Below, one piece after another: positions 5,729 to 50,592 of a DNA stretch of 64,000 nt. The notes beneath the pieces are model-generated. The model saw only the letters and a program-made list of their open reading frames with translations. It was not told where the DNA came from and did not search any database. This DNA is from Escherichia coli (GTDB lineage Bacteria > Pseudomonadota > Gammaproteobacteria > Enterobacterales > Enterobacteriaceae), in NCBI RefSeq assembly GCF_024298765.1, contig NZ_CP101210.1, one strand, 5' to 3'. How positions within the stretch are numbered: position 1 is the stretch's first letter; each line of letters opens with the position of its first letter. The translations under genes and the position numbers were made by a program.

Positions 5729-6405
5729 CACCGGACATTATCCTGCAGCGTACCGGGATCGACGTGAGAGCTGTCGAACAGGGGGATGATGCATGGCACA
5801 AATTACGGCTCGGCGTCATCACCGCTTCAGAAGTTCACAACGTGATAGCAAAGCCCCGCTCAGGAAAGAAGTGGCCTGACATGAAAATGTCCTACTTCCA
5901 CACCCTGCTGGCTGAGGTTTGCACCGGTGTGGCTCCGGAAGTTAACGCTAAGGCGCTGGCCTGGGGAAAACAGTACGAGAACGACGCCAGAACCCTCTTT
6001 GAGTTCACTTCCGGCGTTAATGTTACTGAATCCCCGATCATCTATCGCGACGAAAGTATGCGCACCGCCTGCTCTCCCGATGGTTTATGCAGTGACGGCA
6101 ACGGCCTTGAACTGAAATGCCCGTTTACCTCCCGGGATTTCATGAAGTTCCGGCTCGGTGGTTTCGAGGCCATAAAATCGGCTTACATGGCCCAGGTGCA
6201 GTACAGCATGTGGGTGACGCGAAAAGATGCCTGGTACTTTGCCAACTATGACCCACGAATGAAGCGTGAAGGCCTGCATTATGTCGTGGTTGAGCGGGAT
6301 GAAAATTACATGGCGAGTTTTGACGAGATGGTGCCGGAGTTCATCGAAAAAATGGACGAGGCACTGGCTGAAATTGGTTTTGTATTTGGGGAGCAATGGC
6401 GATGA
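5725..6405 (+). CDS. exo: Exo (lambda exonuclease, Red-alpha)
   Basis: 226-aa [68 protein letters not shown]... Confidence 0.97.
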
Positions 6406-44304: not shown

Positions 44305-45873
44305 TTAGCGTGCCGGCTGAGTAGTCGTGGAAGACTGCTCAAAGTGATAGCGACCGGTTTTCAGGCTGCTTGGGCCGAGGCGTGCAAACTTGAACATTAA
44401 GAACAATTCTGCCACCAGGAACAGGGTATACAGGCCGCAAATCAGCACCATTGAGAAGATGAGATCGCCTGCGGTCAGTGACGAATTCGCCACAGCTGTC
44501 GGCAGCACTTCACCGATAGCCCACGGTTGGCGGCCATATTCAGCCACGAACCAGCCCGCTTCTACAGCAATCCACGGCAGCGGAATACCGTACAGCGCGG
44601 CGCGCAGCAGCCATTTTTTCTCGCCAATGCGGTTGCGGATGACACTCCAGAAAGAGAGCGCAATGATTGCCAGCAGCAGGAAGCCACACGCCACCATGAT
44701 ACGGAACGCGAAGTACAGCGGCGCTACACGCGGAATGGAGTCTTTGGTTGCCTGTTGAATCTGAGCTTCAGTCGCATCAGCCACGTTTGGCGTATAGCGT
44801 TTCAGCAGCAGACCGTAACCGAGATCTTTCTTCATGCTATTGAACTGGTCACGAACGGCCTGGTCAGTAGAACCAGAACGCAGTTGTTCGAGCAGAGAGT
44901 ACGCCTTCATCCCGTTACGAATGCGTTCTTCATGCTGCACCATCAGTTCTTTCAGGCCGATAACTGGAGTATCCACGGAACGCGTTGCAATGATGCCCAG
45001 CGCGTAAGGGATCTGGATCGCAAATTTGTTCGTCTCCTCTTCCTGATCAGGAATGCCGAACAGAGTAAAGGCAGCAGGTGCAGGTTGCGTTTCCCACTCG
45101 GCTTCGATAGCAGCCAGTTTGGTTTTCTGCACGTCGCCCATTTCGTAACCGGATTCATCACCCAGAACAATAACAGACAGAACGGCAGCCATACCGAAGC
45201 TGGCAGCGATAGCAAAGGAGCGTTTAGCGAAGGCGAAGTCACGACCTTTCAGCATATACCATGCGCTGATACCGAGGATGAACATTGCGCCAGTCACATA
45301 ACCAGAAGCTACGGTGTGAACGAATTTCACCTGAGCAACCGGGTTAAGCACCAGCTCGGAGAAGCTCACCATCTCCATACGCATAGTTTCAAAGTTGAAA
45401 TCGGACGCGATTGGGTTTTGCATCCAGCCGTTTGCAACCAGAATCCACAGTGCGGACAGGTTTGAACCGAGCGCCACCAGCCAGGTGACACACATATGCT
45501 GAACTTTACCCAGACGATCCCAACCGAAGAAGAACAGACCTACAAAGGTGGATTCGAGGAAGAAGGCCATCAGACCTTCGATTGCCAGCGGCGCACCGAA
45601 GATATCCCCTACATAGTGGGAATAGTAAGACCAGTTAGTCCCGAACTGGAACTCCATGGTCAGACCGGTAGCCACACCCAGAGCAAAGTTGATACCAAAC
45701 AACTTGCCCCAGAACTTGGTCATATCTTTATAAATCTGTTTGCCGGAAAGAACGTAGACCGTTTCCATAATGGCCAGCAGGAACGCCATACCGAGCGTCA
45801 GTGGCACAAAAAGGAAGTGGTACATCGCGGTCAAGGCAAACTGTAAGCGCGACAGTTCGACTATATCTAACAT
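44305..45873 (-). CDS. cydA: Cytochrome bd-I oxidase subunit I
   Basis: [70 protein letters not shown]; 522 aa. Confidence 0.96.
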
Positions 45874-47201
45874 CATGACTCCTTGCTCATCGCATGAAGA
45901 CTCCGAGAGTGAACCCCGTTAGAAAGGGTCACACGCATGCCCCAATACAAAATTATTTGCTCGCCTCTATCGTTGCCATTTCATCAAAAGAGGAAAAGAC
46001 AATGATAAAAAAGTTACAAATGTGTTAATGAATAAACCAAATTGATCCCGTAATTATATTACGCCGCAAAATCCTTACAATAAACAGGTTTTTATTGAGC
46101 AAATTTGCATTTTTCGACAGTGATCAATTTATAGCGAAATTGTCACGATCTCACCAATTTGATCTACAACAATTTATCGTGTTTTGCAGATTTTTTTCAA
46201 GAATTAAAAATTGATTTATATCAAAATCAACCATATATGTTAATTATGTGTGAATCATGAGCCACTGGTAACTTTATTGTTAATTTATTGTAACAAAATA
46301 GCACAGTAAAATTACCCACATGGAAATATATAGATAAAAAACCAGTATTTTATTTAACAGAGCCGCTTTATCGACTTTTTATAATACTAATTAGTTAGAG
46401 TAGCTACTTTATTGCCATTTTACATAACATATTTTTATCAACGTTAATTGATTGTTGTCTTTATGAGCAACGTACTGTAAATCCGTCACTTATTGTTTCA
46501 TTGGTAATAATCACAAGAAGAAATAGATACCTTAGGTATAGTCAGATGGAACAAGGATTTTCAAAATAAAATATATATGGTATTAATATTTCCCGATCTG
46601 TATTCAATGATTAGCTCAAAGATTGAAAATCAAGAGAAATTGTTATAGCAGTGATACGAAACAACAAAACGGAATGATTGCCAGCCGTTAGAAAACACCG
46701 GACACTCTCGTGTAAAAAGCTACCCTGTCTATGGATATAGCGATATCAACTCATCAAGCGTGGACTGAATGATATTCAGCTCCATATGGGCGGCAACCTG
46801 GAGGATAAACATGATTTCGCCGTTGGAATCAAGGTTGTTCTGCAATATCTACCAGACTGCTTCAATTTATCTGTTTTGGCAGTGCCATAATCTTAATTTA
46901 ACTATTTGAAGATGATGATATTGTAAGATGCCAGAAATTTAGTAATCTGGAGAACCATGTTTACGATCACTAAATATTAAAGTAATAGTCGATAATTCAG
47001 TAACACATCGGGTAATATAATGTATTGATACATAATCATATTAAAAATTCGTGATTAAATAACATAAGAATATGTTTTATTATCATTAAAAAACCTTCTA
47101 TTTCCATCATCCTTAAGATAATAGAACAGTGAATGATGGATAACTTCACCAGAAAAACAAGCAAGAATATAAAATTTAAAAATATGATTCCACTTTCATT
47201 G

Positions 47202-48317
47202 TTATAAAATGGCATCGTGAAGAGCGAGTTGATAATACTGCAATGCATCAGCGTCCTGTCCAGCAGTTTCATAAATTTTGGCAATGTTATAATAGGAGTT
47301 AGCGCGCATTGTCGCCGCATTTGCTCCACTGGCTAACGAGATCGCTTTACGATTTGCCCAAATTGCTTCCGCGATGTTGCCATTTTTCTGATACGCCAGC
47401 CCCAGGTTACTAAATGCCTGTCCGTAATTGCCGTCTAATTCTGTTGCCTGTTGGAAGAGTTGAATGGCTTGCTCAAGTTGACCGGTTTTATAAACAGCTT
47501 CACCTTCGCGATTATATTTTCTTGCCAGTTGAGTATCTCCACTGTTTTGCATCGCAGGTGAAGCCGGAGTTGAAGAACCCGTCGCAGGCATTATCACAGT
47601 GGCTAAATCCCTGACGCCTAATGTGGTGTCGTTAAAATTGGCGCTGGTAACAGAGTTGATATCTTCAAACTCGCCGTTTGGATTGAGTTTAAACACGGTC
47701 CAGATGTTCCCTCGTTTTCCAGCAGGGACACTATAACTACGCACCAGGGAGCTCCCTACATAAACAAACACTTTTGCCTTACTGGCAGAGAGATAATTAC
47801 TGTTGGGCAACCCTTTGTTGCTATAGTCCTGCACGGCATAGATGTAACTTTCGCCAAAATGCTTTTTGCTGATAGTGACAGTTTCTGATCCATAGCTATC
47901 CGTATCATCAACATCCAGATTAGCATCAGTCCCCTCTTTACTATCAAAATAGATATGTCCGCCAGGGAAGATCAAATGTGAATCAAGATCAAAAGGCTTT
48001 TCGCCCCAGCTCAAAACTACACGCATGCCATCCAGACTAGTCATTGCCGGACTAATCGCATAAGTCATGCCAGCACACGAACATTTGACCACCAGATTAG
48101 AATAGCCCTCTTTTTTGACGATCAATAAAGCATCTTGATCATCAGCAAATGTAGAACCCAGATTAACGCTGCCCGATGCATTTGTGGTTCCAGAAACAGA
48201 TTGTGCGCCATTGCGTTGCAGCGTCACCGATACTCCCTCAATGCGTTTATCTTTCACTGTCGCACTTAAAATATCGATATTTACATCGGCCGCATAAACG
48301 TCCGAATTTACACCCAT
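47202..48317 (-). CDS. Hypothetical protein with C-terminal TPR repeats in the position K-12 has mngRAB; N-terminal start uncertain
   Basis: 371-aa ORF; C-terminal ...AIQLFQQATELDGNYGQAFSNLGLAYQKNGNIAEAIWANRKAISL...ALQYYQLALHDAIL. Confidence 0.6.
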   Translation of the reverse strand: MGVNSDVYAADVNIDILSATVKDKRIEGVSVTLQRNGAQSVSGTTNASGSVNLGSTFADDQDALLIVKKEGYSNLVVKCSCAGMTYAISPAMTSLDGMRVVLSWGEKPFDLDSHLIFPGGHIYFDSKEGTDANLDVDDTDSYGSETVTISKKHFGESYIYAVQDYSNKGLPNSNYLSASKAKVFVYVGSSLVRSYSVPAGKRGNIWTVFKLNPNGEFEDINSVTSANFNDTTLGVRDLATVIMPATGSSTPASPAMQNSGDTQLARKYNREGEAVYKTGQLEQAIQLFQQATELDGNYGQAFSNLGLAYQKNGNIAEAIWANRKAISLASGANAATMRANSYYNIAKIYETAGQDADALQYYQLALHDAIL

Positions 48318-48454
48318 CAGGGCCAGAGCAACCGGCAGAACAATTTTCTTCTTGTATAAATGCTTTTACAGAACGGAGAGGGGATATTTTGCCGGGCATT
48401 ATTGCGCAGAAGATGGGAGAAAAGCAGTGGGCAAACTTTTCAGATTAGTGCCCG

Positions 48455-48556
48455 AATAAAAAAGGCCATCATAAGATGGCCAACCATGTCGAAACCGACA
48501 GCCCTTCGCCCCTCCTGTAGAGGGAAGCGGCGAGGGCTATTTCTTATTACAGATAT
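48455..48556 (-). ncRNA. sdhX: SdhX (RybD)-like 3'UTR sRNA of the sdh-suc operon with intrinsic terminator
   Basis: About 100 nt downstream of sucD stop ending in ggccatc..gatggcc hairpin plus T-run; boundaries approximate. Confidence 0.55.
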
Positions 48557-49426
48557 TTATTTCAGAACAGTTTTCAGTGCTTCACCGATATCCGCCAGGC
48601 TGCGAACGGTTTTCACGCCTGCGGCTTCCAGAGCAGCGAATTTCTCATCCGCAGTCCCTTTACCACCGGCAATGATCGCACCTGCGTGACCCATACGTTT
48701 GCCTTTCGGCGCAGTCACACCAGCGATGTAACCCACAACTGGCTTGGTAACGTGCTCCTTGATGTACGCCGCTGCTTCTTCTTCAGCGCTACCGCCGATC
48801 TCACCGATCATCACGATCGCTTCGGTCTGCGGATCTTTTTCGAACATTTCGAGGATGTCGATAAAGTTAGAGCCAGGGATCGGGTCGCCGCCGATACCAA
48901 CGCAGGTCGACTGACCGAAACCGTAATCCGTGGTCTGTTTAACCGCTTCATAGGTCAGCGTACCGGAACGGGAAACGATACCCACTTTACCCGGTTTGTG
49001 AATGTGACCCGGCTGGATACCGATTTTGCATTCCCCCGGGGTGATAACGCCTGGGCAGTTCGGGCCGATCATACGAACGCCTGCTTCATCCAGTTTCACT
49101 TTCACCGTCAGCATATCCAGCGTCGGGATGCCTTCAGTGATGGTGATAATCAGTTTGATGCCTGCATCGATAGCTTCCAGAATGGAGTCTTTGCAGAACG
49201 GTGCTGGTACGTAGATAACAGAGGCGGTAGCGCCAGTAGCAGCAACAGCTTCACGCACGGTGTTGAACACTGGCAGGCCGAGGTGGGTAGTACCGCCTTT
49301 ACCTGGGGTTACGCCGCCAACCATTTTAGTGCCGTATGCAATGGCCTGTTCTGAGTGGAAAGTCCCCTGGCTACCGGTAAAGCCCTGGCAGATAACCTTG
49401 GTGTTTTTATCAATTAAAATGGACAT
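48557..49426 (-). CDS. sucD: Succinyl-CoA synthetase alpha subunit
   Basis: 289-aa [48 protein letters not shown]. Confidence 0.97.
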
Positions 49427-50592
49427 TATTTCCCCTCCACTGCGGCAACAACCTGCTGAGCTGCATCCGTCAGACCTTTTGCTGCAATAATATTCAGGCC
49501 GCTGTCAGCCAGTTTCTTCGCGCCGAGTTCGGCGTTGTTACCTTCCAGACGTACCACGACCGGTACGTTAACACCCACTTCCGCTACCGCGCCGATGATA
49601 CCGTCAGCGATCAGGTCGCAACGAACGATACCGCCGAAGATGTTAACCAGAACGGCTTTCACTTTGTCGTCAGAGAGGATGATTTTGAACGCTTCGGTTA
49701 CACGTTCTTTGGTTGCGCCGCCGCCAACGTCCAGGAAGTTAGCTGGTTCGCCGCCGTGCAGTTTAACGATGTCCATGGTGCCCATCGCCAGGCCTGCGCC
49801 GTTAACCATACAACCGATGTTACCGTCCAGCGCAACGTAGTTCAGTTCCCACTGTGCAGCCTGTGCTTCACGCGGATCTTCCTGCGACTGGTCACGCATT
49901 TCGCGCAGATCAGGCTGGCGGAACAGTGCGTTGCCATCAGCGCCCAGTTTGCCGTCGAGGCAAATCAGATCGCCCTGTTTGGTAATGACCAGCGGGTTGA
50001 TTTCGATCAGCGCCAGGTCGCGCTCCAGGAAAATGGTCGCCAGGCCCATGAAGATTTTGGTGAACTGCTGAACCAGTTTACCTTCCAGACCCAGTTTGAA
50101 CGCCAGCTCGCGTCCCTGATACGGCATCGGGCCAGTCAGCGGATCAAGCGCAACTTTGTGGATCAGGTGCGGAGTTTCTTCCGCCACTTTTTCAATTTCC
50201 ACGCCGCCTTCGGTGGAGGCCATAAAGACCACACGACGGGAACTACGGTCAACAACGGCACCGAGATACAGCTCTTTAGCGATATCGGTCGCTGCTTCAA
50301 CCAGAATCTGGTTAACCGGTTGGCCATTGGCATCTGTTTGATACGTTACCAGACGCTTGCCCAGCCAGTTTTCTGCAAAAGCACGGATGTCTTCTTTGCT
50401 GTTTACCACTTTCACACCGCCCGCTTTACCGCGGCCACCAGCGTGAACCTGACATTTCACTACCCACGGACCGGCACCGATTTTTGAAGCGGCTTCTTCT
50501 GCTTCGCGCGGAGTAGTACAGGCATAACCCACCGGTGCTGGTAAGCCATAGCGGGCAAAAAGTTGTTTTGCCTGATATTCATGTAAGTTCAT
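49426..50592 (-). CDS. sucC: Succinyl-CoA synthetase beta subunit
   Basis: 388-aa [64 protein letters not shown]. Confidence 0.97.

Follow-up and report, generated by a model that had tools for sequence, protein, structure and literature searches.

A Structural Allele of the sucD–cydA Interval in Escherichia coli with a Putative Relic of a TPR-repeat Gene

The DNA between sucD and cydA in the 64-kb window (the whole stretch of 64,000 nucleotides analyzed here, from Escherichia coli) is ordinary, already-known pangenome variation, namely one structural allele among four common ones. It is likely that this allele is one form of the spacer that separates the suc operon from cydAB and is prone to deletion and insertion. 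The tetratricopeptide repeat (TPR) ORF within it appears to be a non-functional relic of a 397-aa secreted-protein gene, and the AT-rich DNA beyond the cydAB promoter region appears to be a functionless relic as well.

Structural Alleles of the sucD–cydA Interval

The interval is bounded by cydA (cytochrome bd-I subunit I; 44305–45876, minus strand) and sucD (succinyl-CoA synthetase alpha subunit; 48557–49426, minus strand), as given by the ORF list and RefSeq annotation (for sucD, that of an identical locus); RefSeq starts cydA at the second methionine (45873). Both genes match those of K-12, and the neighbors run tolQ-ybgC-ybgE-cydX-cydB-cydA … sucD-sucC-sucB-sucA, so that the K-12 gene order and the 2.7-kb interval described in a first-pass annotation of this DNA are borne out (2.68 kb). 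The 2683-bp interval recurs as 100% identical copies in many RefSeq E. coli genomes and is therefore not an assembly artefact. The absence of mngR, mngA, and mngB, also described at first, agrees with tblastn searches using the K-12 MngR, MngA, and MngB proteins, which gave no match at E ≤ 1e-3 across the full 64 kb.

Directly after the sucD stop codon lies the small RNA sdhX (sucD 3′ UTR; about 101 nt; 48456–48556, minus strand), with 97% identity to the K-12 sequence that carries the ncRNA annotation sdhX; the alignment spans 48458–48700 at the same identity. A hairpin followed by a T-run, a putative rho-independent terminator, is located at its end (48464–48481, minus strand). A permissive Rfam search of 45000–49500 gave zero matches, sdhX included. 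The spacer from this terminator to the original start of the TPR gene (48354–48455, minus strand) forms a sucD-TPR junction particular to the window allele; the divergent strain E69 has it at 85% identity, and it is about 71% alignable with DNA downstream of mngB in ST131-type strains.

Four structural alleles, counted with four junction or marker queries, cover 5415 of the 5426 complete E. coli genomes, and their breakpoints were mapped by BLAST against K-12, TO148, O157, and an ST73-like strain. The K-12 type is found in 3173 genomes (58%), the methylaspartate-island type (O157) in 1131, the type with mngRAB and the TPR gene (ST131) in 565, and the sucD-TPR type of the window, whose junction query had to be fully covered, in 546 of the 5426 (approximately 10%), including the type strain and Nissle 1917. 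In the 565 genomes (ST131, SE15, TO148) the order is sucD-mngR-mngA-mngB-TPR-cydA, with the same AT-rich DNA present. Since mngRAB stands there beside the TPR gene and its AT-rich DNA, they are not alternatives, and the initial view that mngRAB had been replaced finds no support. E2348/69 carries mngR together with glmS and two island genes adjoining cydA. Contigs encoding an identical SucD showed the K-12 and ST131 arrangements only and included zero outgroups. Among the B2 sequence types studied, mngA, mngB, and mngR were reported only in ST131 (PMC9836092); strains with the window allele should lack the MngA/MngB mannosylglycerate route, in agreement with these pangenome data. The sucD–cydA interval is a textbook intergenic hot spot, at which different cassettes, whole or in remnants, segregate in one species, an observation of little weight alone.

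The TPR-repeat ORF and Its Full-length Form

The ORF at 47202–48317 (minus strand; 1116 bp; 44.6% G+C versus 49.8% for the window) encodes 371 aa and is named tetratricopeptide repeat protein in RefSeq (WP_000538731.1). Pfam TPR matches fall at residues 266–366 (best E 2e-9), and the AlphaFold model of a full-length relative is all-beta over residues 22–236 and helical from 247, in keeping with the beta-rich N-terminus and C-terminal TPR repeats that had been noted from the translation. Among the matches listed from Pfam and NCBIfam only TPR families appeared, with none for the N-terminal two-thirds of the protein, and a PDB sequence search with the family profile found TPR proteins only. The model contains a TerD-like beta-sandwich fold, and the family conserves an acidic stretch, NLDVDDTxxxGPET; the TerD family itself was absent among the Pfam matches listed and among the NCBIfam matches. 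The label DUF2135/YfaP is given by one source only (JGI), as a source name, and DUF2135 was not among the best 25 of the 35 Pfam domain matches (those listed to E 0.5; the remainder are weaker, to E 10). An exact look-up of protein P0113 of Escherichia sp. E4694 gave no record.

The full-length form comprises 397 aa, with a signal peptide, an Ig-like domain, a TerD-like domain, and three to four TPR repeats. Full-length relatives begin MKKIVLPVALAL…; with the putative cleavage site shown, this start reads MKKIVLPVALALMGINADVYA/AD. The signal peptide was judged from the sequence, with a basic n-region, a hydrophobic core, and a small-x-small site as defining marks, and an N-terminal hydrophobic leader is present in all 27 aligned relatives. 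The dN/dS ratio between genera (0.065–0.08) points to strong purifying selection on the family.

The window copy differs from this form at both ends. Its 5′ alignment has AAG at 48351–48353 (minus strand) where the ST131-type and E69 alleles have ATG, and the exact 41-mer with the AAG start occurs in 540 genomes. With this change the signal peptide is lost: the first ATG of the window ORF falls within the hydrophobic core, and, judged from the sequence, the ORF has no Sec-type signal peptide translated from a start codon. At the 3′ end, BLAST breakpoints and CTGGCG microhomologies mark where 259 bp have been deleted by comparison with the ST131-type allele (junction at 47218–47230, minus strand; window 47224 corresponds to L003 4471/4731), and the junction 41-mer occurs in 528 genomes. 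This deletion took the last 64 bp of the gene, the terminator hairpin, and approximately 195 bp further downstream. The ORF consequently ends in …QLALHDAIL, without the last 21–23 residues and without a complete TPR array and capping helix; among the lost residues are A377 and R392, which are invariant in 27 family members, and Y386, which is nearly so. Related alleles are also damaged. RefSeq flags the TPR gene of an O6:K2:H1 strain as a pseudogene with an internal stop, and strain E69, which shares the sucD-TPR junction and has the ATG and 3′ end intact, carries a large internal deletion.

The 371-aa ORF may nevertheless be a working gene, translated from an internal ATG (or from an ATT three codons past the lost start) as a protein without a classical signal peptide. 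The 1116 bp remain open in most of the approximately 540 genomes, RefSeq calls a protein, and strain RS218 has a 380-aa model with an alternative start. We regard this possibility as unlikely, because the copy has lost its canonical start and the greater part of a signal peptide whose hydrophobic leader all 27 relatives have, because invariant C-terminal residues are deleted, because one strain carries an internal stop, and because dN/dS between two AAG alleles is 0.66, a sign of relaxed constraint, against about 0.07 between genera. The carriers are about 99% identical, so that the open frame may reflect only a recent lesion. The RefSeq 371-aa protein is probably a truncated relic, which annotation and pangenome pipelines will keep apart from the 397-aa parent.

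AT-rich DNA Upstream of cydAB

The DNA between cydA and the TPR ORF (45877–47201; 1325 bp) is very AT-rich, as had been observed at the outset, with 31.5% G+C against 49.8% for the window. Its ORFs of at least 40 aa are two only (44 and 46 aa), together with the tail of a 97-aa ORF with a GTG start (47036–47329), which overlaps the TPR ORF out of frame for most of its length; the statement that 45950–47200 contains no ORF of 60 aa or more holds apart from this overlap. The 1325 bp are composed of a 379-bp cydAB promoter region common with K-12 and 946 bp of putative relic DNA.

The promoter and leader of cydAB (45877–46255, minus strand) are common to all E. coli alleles, as shown by alignments with K-12, O157, TO148, and E2348/69. 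A scan for FNR boxes predicted two FNR-type boxes, TTGATTTATATCAA (46211–46224) and TTGATCTACAACAA (46159–46172), at the 52-bp spacing found in K-12, as befits the regulatory region, and a promoter scan predicted a promoter-like TTGTAA-16-TATAAT (46053–46080). An upstream ORF of 21 codons that overlaps the start of cydA was set aside, because the middle of its peptide is not conserved in other genera.

The distal part (46256–47201; 30.9% G+C) begins where K-12 homology ends, at 46255; it is present in approximately 1105 genomes and missing from K-12-type genomes. Part of it, 46263–46539, is 80–83% identical to the end of the O157:H7-type methylaspartate island that lies nearest cydA. Further upstream of cydA, at 46720–46832 (plus strand), lies a relic of glmS (methylaspartate mutase subunit S), interrupted by a stop codon and an indel; its order and orientation are those of the O157-type island. 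For this relic, tblastn aligned 35 aa at 54% identity (E 8e-6 for the interval and 2e-4 for the whole window), its DNA is 74–76% identical, and its peptide matched only two NCBIfam models, both methylaspartate mutase S (E 0.045 and 0.076). The other 11 island proteins had no tblastn match in the interval below E 0.1. The first-pass suggestion of decayed DNA is right. A phage search with the distal DNA gave no match, and a plasmid search gave three records only (two of about 4.9 Mb and one of 0.73 Mb); these match the O157-shared segment alone and look chromosomal, and were discounted as plasmid similarity.

It is tempting to ask whether 46256–47201 extends the control of cydAB, as an H-NS platform, a promoter, or a small RNA that tunes cytochrome bd-I. 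DNA of 31% G+C directly upstream of the cydAB promoter region, kept in approximately 1105 genomes, would suit such a role, and ArcA has been proposed to relieve H-NS repression at the adjoining promoter region (Govantes et al., 2000, cited in PMC3798270). On the other hand, the segment is missing from 58% of genomes (K-12 type), diverges by 6–16% between haplotypes, has gaps of 91 and 163 bp in E69, and holds a recognizable gene fragment; promoter-like sites are not in excess (13 found versus 9.9 ± 3.3 in shuffled sequence), and Rfam gave no match. Such a role seems improbable, and it would be compatible with the reading of the interval as one allele of an unstable spacer. For the DNA upstream of cydAB, K-12 is unrepresentative of about 40% of E. 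coli, a point that matters when K-12 promoter maps are applied to pathogenic or probiotic strains.

Origin of the Locus and Comparison with Known Systems

The order sucC-sucD-TPR-cydA-cydB was found in two Pectobacterium species and in Enterobacter sp. BIGb0383; two more Pectobacterium loci end at the TPR gene, with only TPR-cydA-cydB visible. In Pseudocitrobacter the order is sucD-TPR-(OMP-like gene)-mngR-mngA-mngB-cydA. Identity to the E. coli proteins falls in the same order for the TPR protein (77%, then 63%), SucD (97%, then 92–95%), and CydA (93%, then 85–91%). The occurrence of sucD-TPR-cydA in other genera implies that this backbone is old and that mngRAB is a variable insert; accordingly, sucD-sdhX-TPR gene-cydA appears to be ancestral and older than E. 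coli. The species-level scan looked for exact matches to short stretches of the E. coli peptide, which detect gene-bearing species only, and E. albertii, E. fergusonii, Salmonella, and Citrobacter lay outside its reach, so that the ancestral reading is drawn from a few genera. Other observations point away from it. In Enterobacter sp. BIGb0383 the TPR gene stands at the same distance from that of E. coli as the Pectobacterium genes do, and is close to the latter, which hints at some transfer among Enterobacterales; the family is patchy over phyla, with members in Bacteroidota, Campylobacterota, and a Nitrosomonadales MAG (39–56% identity); and mngRAB stands in a different place with respect to the TPR gene in Pseudocitrobacter than in E. 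coli ST131. In addition, the two E. coli TPR alleles differ at dS 0.21, far above the flanking genes (cydA is 99.8% identical), and at least one of them may have been imported.

These features bear on the proposal that a foreign AT-rich segment, TPR gene and non-coding DNA together, was horizontally acquired in place of mngRAB. The low G+C (31% for the spacer, 44.6% for the ORF, and 49.8% for the window), the patchy family, and the deeply divergent E. coli alleles speak for it, but it is decidedly improbable given the coexistence of mngRAB with the TPR gene and AT-rich DNA in 565 genomes, the TPR gene that follows sucD in Pectobacterium, in Enterobacter sp., and in Pseudocitrobacter, and the normal promoter region that makes up the cydA-proximal third of the AT-rich DNA. 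Nor does the interval resemble a genomic island with mobility signatures and an empty site in related genera: no integrase, tRNA, or other mobility gene was seen in its ORF list, a repeat search found only short chance-level two-copy matches and no flanking repeats as boundaries, plasmid and phage similarity is lacking, and the gene occupies the site in three other genera. Of the first-pass reading, decay and the absence of mngRAB are supported, whereas replacement by acquired DNA is not. The opposite case considered at first, a common ancestral arrangement with AT-rich DNA that is simply the cydA regulatory region, is about half right, since sucD-TPR-cydA looks old but the regulatory region accounts for only 379 of the 1325 AT-rich bases.

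A likely history of the unstable spacer is as follows. An old backbone, sucD-sdhX-TPR gene-cydA, would predate E. coli, its resident gene encoding a periplasmic protein exported through Sec and made up of a signal peptide, an Ig-like sandwich, a TerD-like sandwich, and three to four TPR repeats. Some other lineages have mngRAB inserted directly after the sdhX terminator, and others have a 13.5-kb methylaspartate (glutamate fermentation) island adjoining cydA; the window allele is without mngRAB and has island scraps only. The change of ATG to AAG ended production of the signal peptide, and a microhomology-mediated deletion of 259 bp removed the conserved last helix and the terminator. SdhX would remain intact, mannosylglycerate uptake and use via MngA/MngB would be absent, and cydAB would remain under FNR and ArcA through the intact core promoter region in a changed upstream context. 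It is very improbable that the exported Ig-like/TerD-like/TPR protein is an anciently syntenic envelope partner of suc and cyd in Enterobacterales whose decay in about 10% of E. coli, with the different AT-rich DNA, alters H-NS/ArcA/FNR control of cytochrome bd-I in B2/ExPEC-type lineages (Nissle 1917, ST73, ST95).

Among known arrangements, K-12 (sucD-sdhX-mngR-mngA-mngB-cydA; NC_000913.3) shares with the window the flanks, sdhX (97%), and the core cydAB promoter elements, including the two FNR boxes 52 bp apart. By contrast, K-12 has 5.9 kb (mngRAB and a REP-containing tail) where the window has 2.2 kb, has neither the TPR gene nor the distal AT-rich DNA, and carries a different haplotype of the promoter-proximal region, in which a leader patch fails to align. 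The ST131/SE15/TO148 allele (sucD-sdhX-mngRAB-TPR(397 aa)-cydA) is closer, with 93% DNA identity in the TPR gene and 91–99%, by segment, in the AT-rich DNA beside cydA, but it possesses mngRAB, and its TPR gene retains the ATG start, the signal peptide, the complete C-terminus, and a terminator of its own; the window lacks every one of these features. The O157:H7-type methylaspartate (mesaconate-pathway) island occupies the same intergenic site and shares 260–280 bp beside the cydA promoter region and the glmS fragment; it comprises 12 intact genes in about 13.5 kb, without the TPR gene or mngRAB, whereas the window keeps only about 110 bp of glmS. The loci of the Pectobacterium species and Enterobacter sp. 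BIGb0383 are alike in gene order, orientation, and domain layout (63% protein identity); unlike that of the window, their TPR genes are intact, with leader and full C-terminus, and the spacer to cydA is only 690–730 bp with 38–40% G+C. TerD proteins are generally described as cytoplasmic. The TerD-like domain of the TPR family, at 15–17% identity to the calcium-binding TerD-family proteins SCO6318 (PDB 2qz7) and Klebsiella TerD (2kxt), differs in its putative export and in its fusion with an Ig-like domain and TPR repeats.

The sucD-cydA interval and its TPR gene

The interval between sucD and cydA (45874-48556) is a variable spacer in Escherichia coli, and the version seen here is a real but ordinary structural allele, common and already annotated. 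It occurs at 100% identity in many RefSeq genomes, such as strain 104 and several avian isolates. As described in the first-pass annotation, the flanks keep the K-12 order on the minus strand (sucA-sucB-sucC-sucD, the interval, cydA-cydB-cydX-ybgE-ybgC-tolQ), and mngRAB is missing: K-12 MngR, MngA and MngB, used as tblastn queries, gave 0 matches within the 64-kb window. The interval contains an ORF of 371 aa (47202-48317, minus strand) with TPR matches at residues 266-366, separated from cydA by 1325 bp of 31.5% G+C (49.8% for the window). This AT-rich stretch had been called free of ORFs of 60 aa or more, which is correct except that a 97-aa out-of-frame ORF extends into 47036-47200. In two loci, one number is missing from the series of RefSeq locus tags between cydA and the TPR gene (DDV95_RS21330 in the annotated locus L001, 4001-5328; ECTO148_RS17615 in the TO148 locus L003, 3125-4666), and the skipped tags may mark a dropped annotation once called in the AT-rich DNA.

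The start codon of the TPR gene (48351-48353) is AAG in place of ATG, and from the upstream stop codon to the internal ATG chosen by RefSeq no alternative ATG, GTG or TTG is available. A 259-bp deletion flanked by CTGGCG repeats converts the last 21-23 residues to LHDAIL; the gene thereby loses its own terminator hairpin as well as the invariant residues A377 and R392. A 41-mer with the AAG is present in 540 genomes, and 528 carry the deletion junction; thus, both lesions are essentially fixed in the window allele. The earlier suggestion that this DNA is decayed holds. The dN/dS between two AAG alleles is 0.66 (9 non-synonymous and 4 synonymous changes), and one of this pair, which contains an internal stop, is annotated as a pseudogene. 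Loss of function is therefore only inferred: the counts are low, and most carriers retain an open frame.

Full-length relatives begin with MKKIVLPVALALMGINADVYA/AD, a sequence that resembles a typical Sec leader. The beta-rich N-terminal region noticed earlier corresponds, in an AlphaFold model of a full-length relative (built on 27 relatives; pLDDT 88.7), to a pair of beta sandwiches (residues 22-95 and 96-236); a linker follows, and the helical repeats start at residue 271. The beta part matched no sequence profile in Pfam, NCBIfam or PDB sequence searches. At best we can guess that the protein is exported and serves as a protein-binding scaffold, possibly one that also binds calcium. The TerD-like middle domain is also present within very large multidomain proteins.

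Age and origin of the TPR gene

With the full-length 397-aa protein as query and a single genome for each species, a scan that detects only gene-bearing species gave 28 loci. The order sucC-sucD-TPR-cydA-cydB is found in two Pectobacterium species and Enterobacter sp. BIGb0383; two more Pectobacterium loci end at the TPR gene, so that only TPR-cydA-cydB is visible. Pseudocitrobacter vendiensis has sucD-TPR-(OMP-like gene)-mngR-mngA-mngB-cydA. The E. coli protein shares 77% identity with its Pseudocitrobacter counterpart and 63% with those of Pectobacterium and Enterobacter sp., SucD and CydA identities rank the genera in the same way, and the dN/dS of the TPR gene between genera is 0.065-0.08. 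Homologues at 39-56% identity occur in Bacteroidota, Campylobacterota and a Nitrosomonadales MAG (L012-L030, full-length, including Flavobacterium, Chryseobacterium, Tenacibaculum, Sulfuricurvum and Helicobacter burdigaliensis), and none of these loci has suc or cyd neighbours. The most economical, though unproven, reading is that sucD-TPR-cydA is the ancestral backbone, since the scan is blind to species lacking the gene and stops short of close outgroups such as E. albertii, E. fergusonii and Salmonella.

Two observations within E. coli point in the same direction. Strain E69 has the sdhX-TPR junction of the window at 85% identity, with the ATG and 3' end intact and a large internal deletion. 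In TO148, a terminator-like hairpin 3' of mngB resembles the sdhX terminator (GGTCATCTCCGGATGGCCTTTTTG; L003 ~5880-5990, and the ST131-type locus L035, 8770-8900) and is followed by the spacer motif TAATCTGAAAAGT that follows sdhX in the window. The second sdhX-like hairpin and the common motif suggest that mngRAB was inserted at the sdhX terminator, and it looks as if the recipient would have been a sucD-sdhX-TPR ancestor. Rather than the proposed replacement of mngRAB, the interval is better described by cassettes lost and inserted differentially around a resident gene that is old and itself decaying. MngB, MngR and MngA of the ST131 type are 91%, 96% and 97% identical to those of K-12. The two E. 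coli TPR alleles (window 47202-48317 and L003 4667-5860) show a dS of 0.21, and their AT-rich DNA differs by 6-9%, whereas the neighbouring cydA is 99.8% identical, which implies that the spacer haplotypes are much older than their flanks, or were imported.

The TPR gene precedes mngRAB in P. vendiensis and follows it in E. coli ST131. The extra P. vendiensis gene (257 aa; L007 5642-6415) has a signal-peptide-like N-terminus, and we guess that its product is an outer-membrane protein.

The AT-rich DNA and the cydAB promoter

The possibility that the AT-rich DNA is simply the cydA regulatory region holds for the 379 bp adjoining cydA (45877-46255), which comprise the promoter and leader, and fails for the distal 946 bp (46256-47201), which are missing from K-12-type genomes. 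The promoter region contains two FNR-type boxes at the K-12 spacing and a promoter-like TTGTAA-16-TATAAT site. Its haplotype is common to the window, O157:H7, TO148/ST131-type strains and E2348/69, with K-12 as the outlier (L002 8080-8458), and a leader patch at ~45935-45995 is unalignable between the two haplotypes. K-12 promoter maps may therefore not carry over directly to ~40% of E. coli. A candidate leader hairpin (45909-45932, minus strand; GTGACCC...GGGGTTCAC) has a Pseudocitrobacter counterpart altered on both arms (ATGAACC...GGTTCAT), a change that looks compensatory. An upstream ORF of 21 codons terminates in an ATGA overlapping the cydA start; its peptide is unconserved in the other genera compared.

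Within the distal DNA, 46263-46539 matches the edge of the O157-type island on its cydA side, and 46720-46832 is a broken glmS fragment (tblastn E 8e-6), in the order and orientation expected from that island and matching only the NCBIfam families of methylaspartate mutase S. The rest found no relatives in plasmid or phage searches. Divergence between haplotypes is 6-16%, with gaps in E69. We interpret the distal DNA as what erosion has left of earlier cassettes. It could conceivably play a part in the H-NS-dependent control described for cydAB (Govantes et al., 2000, as cited in PMC3798270), although no result here favours such a role.

Alleles of the interval in E. coli

Junction or marker queries against 5426 complete genomes assigned 5415 to four alleles: the K-12 type (mngB-REP-cydA junction; 3173), the methylaspartate-island type (1131), the ST131 type (mngB-TPR junction; 565) and the window allele (sdhX-TPR junction; 546), whose carriers include the type strain ATCC 11775, Nissle 1917, avian isolates and strains of serotypes O18:H1 and O6:K2:H1. 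A fifth, rare arrangement, seen in an O127:H6 E2348/69 derivative (L036 3200-9400), reads sucD-mngR-mngA fragment-ISEc13-glmS-two hypothetical genes-cydA; here an IS-associated deletion fuses the mng cassette to the methylaspartate island, which shows that the two can share one site. Among the B2 sequence types of a published pangenome study, mngA, mngB and mngR were reported only in ST131 (PMC9836092); absence of mng in such lineages is thus already on record.

Homology to K-12 is restricted to 45700-46255 (cydA and 379 bp upstream) and 48458-48700 (the sucD 3' end and sdhX), between which K-12 has 5.9 kb (mngR, mngA, mngB and a REP-containing tail) and the window 2.2 kb. ST131-type strains (TO148, SE15 and others) carry sucD-sdhX-mngR-mngA-mngB-TPR(397 aa)-AT-rich DNA-cydA, and TO148 is collinear with the window interval at 93-95% identity up to 14 bp before the true start of the TPR gene, the sole break being the 259 bp missing from the window at 47224. 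By contrast, the O157:H7 site has neither mng nor the TPR gene and reads sucD-LysR-cobO-fumarase-transporter-DUF4387-AtuA-methylaspartate ammonia-lyase-mutE-glmL-glmS-two hypothetical genes-cydA; its homology to the window runs from cydA outward to 46514-46539, with a further short match within glmS.
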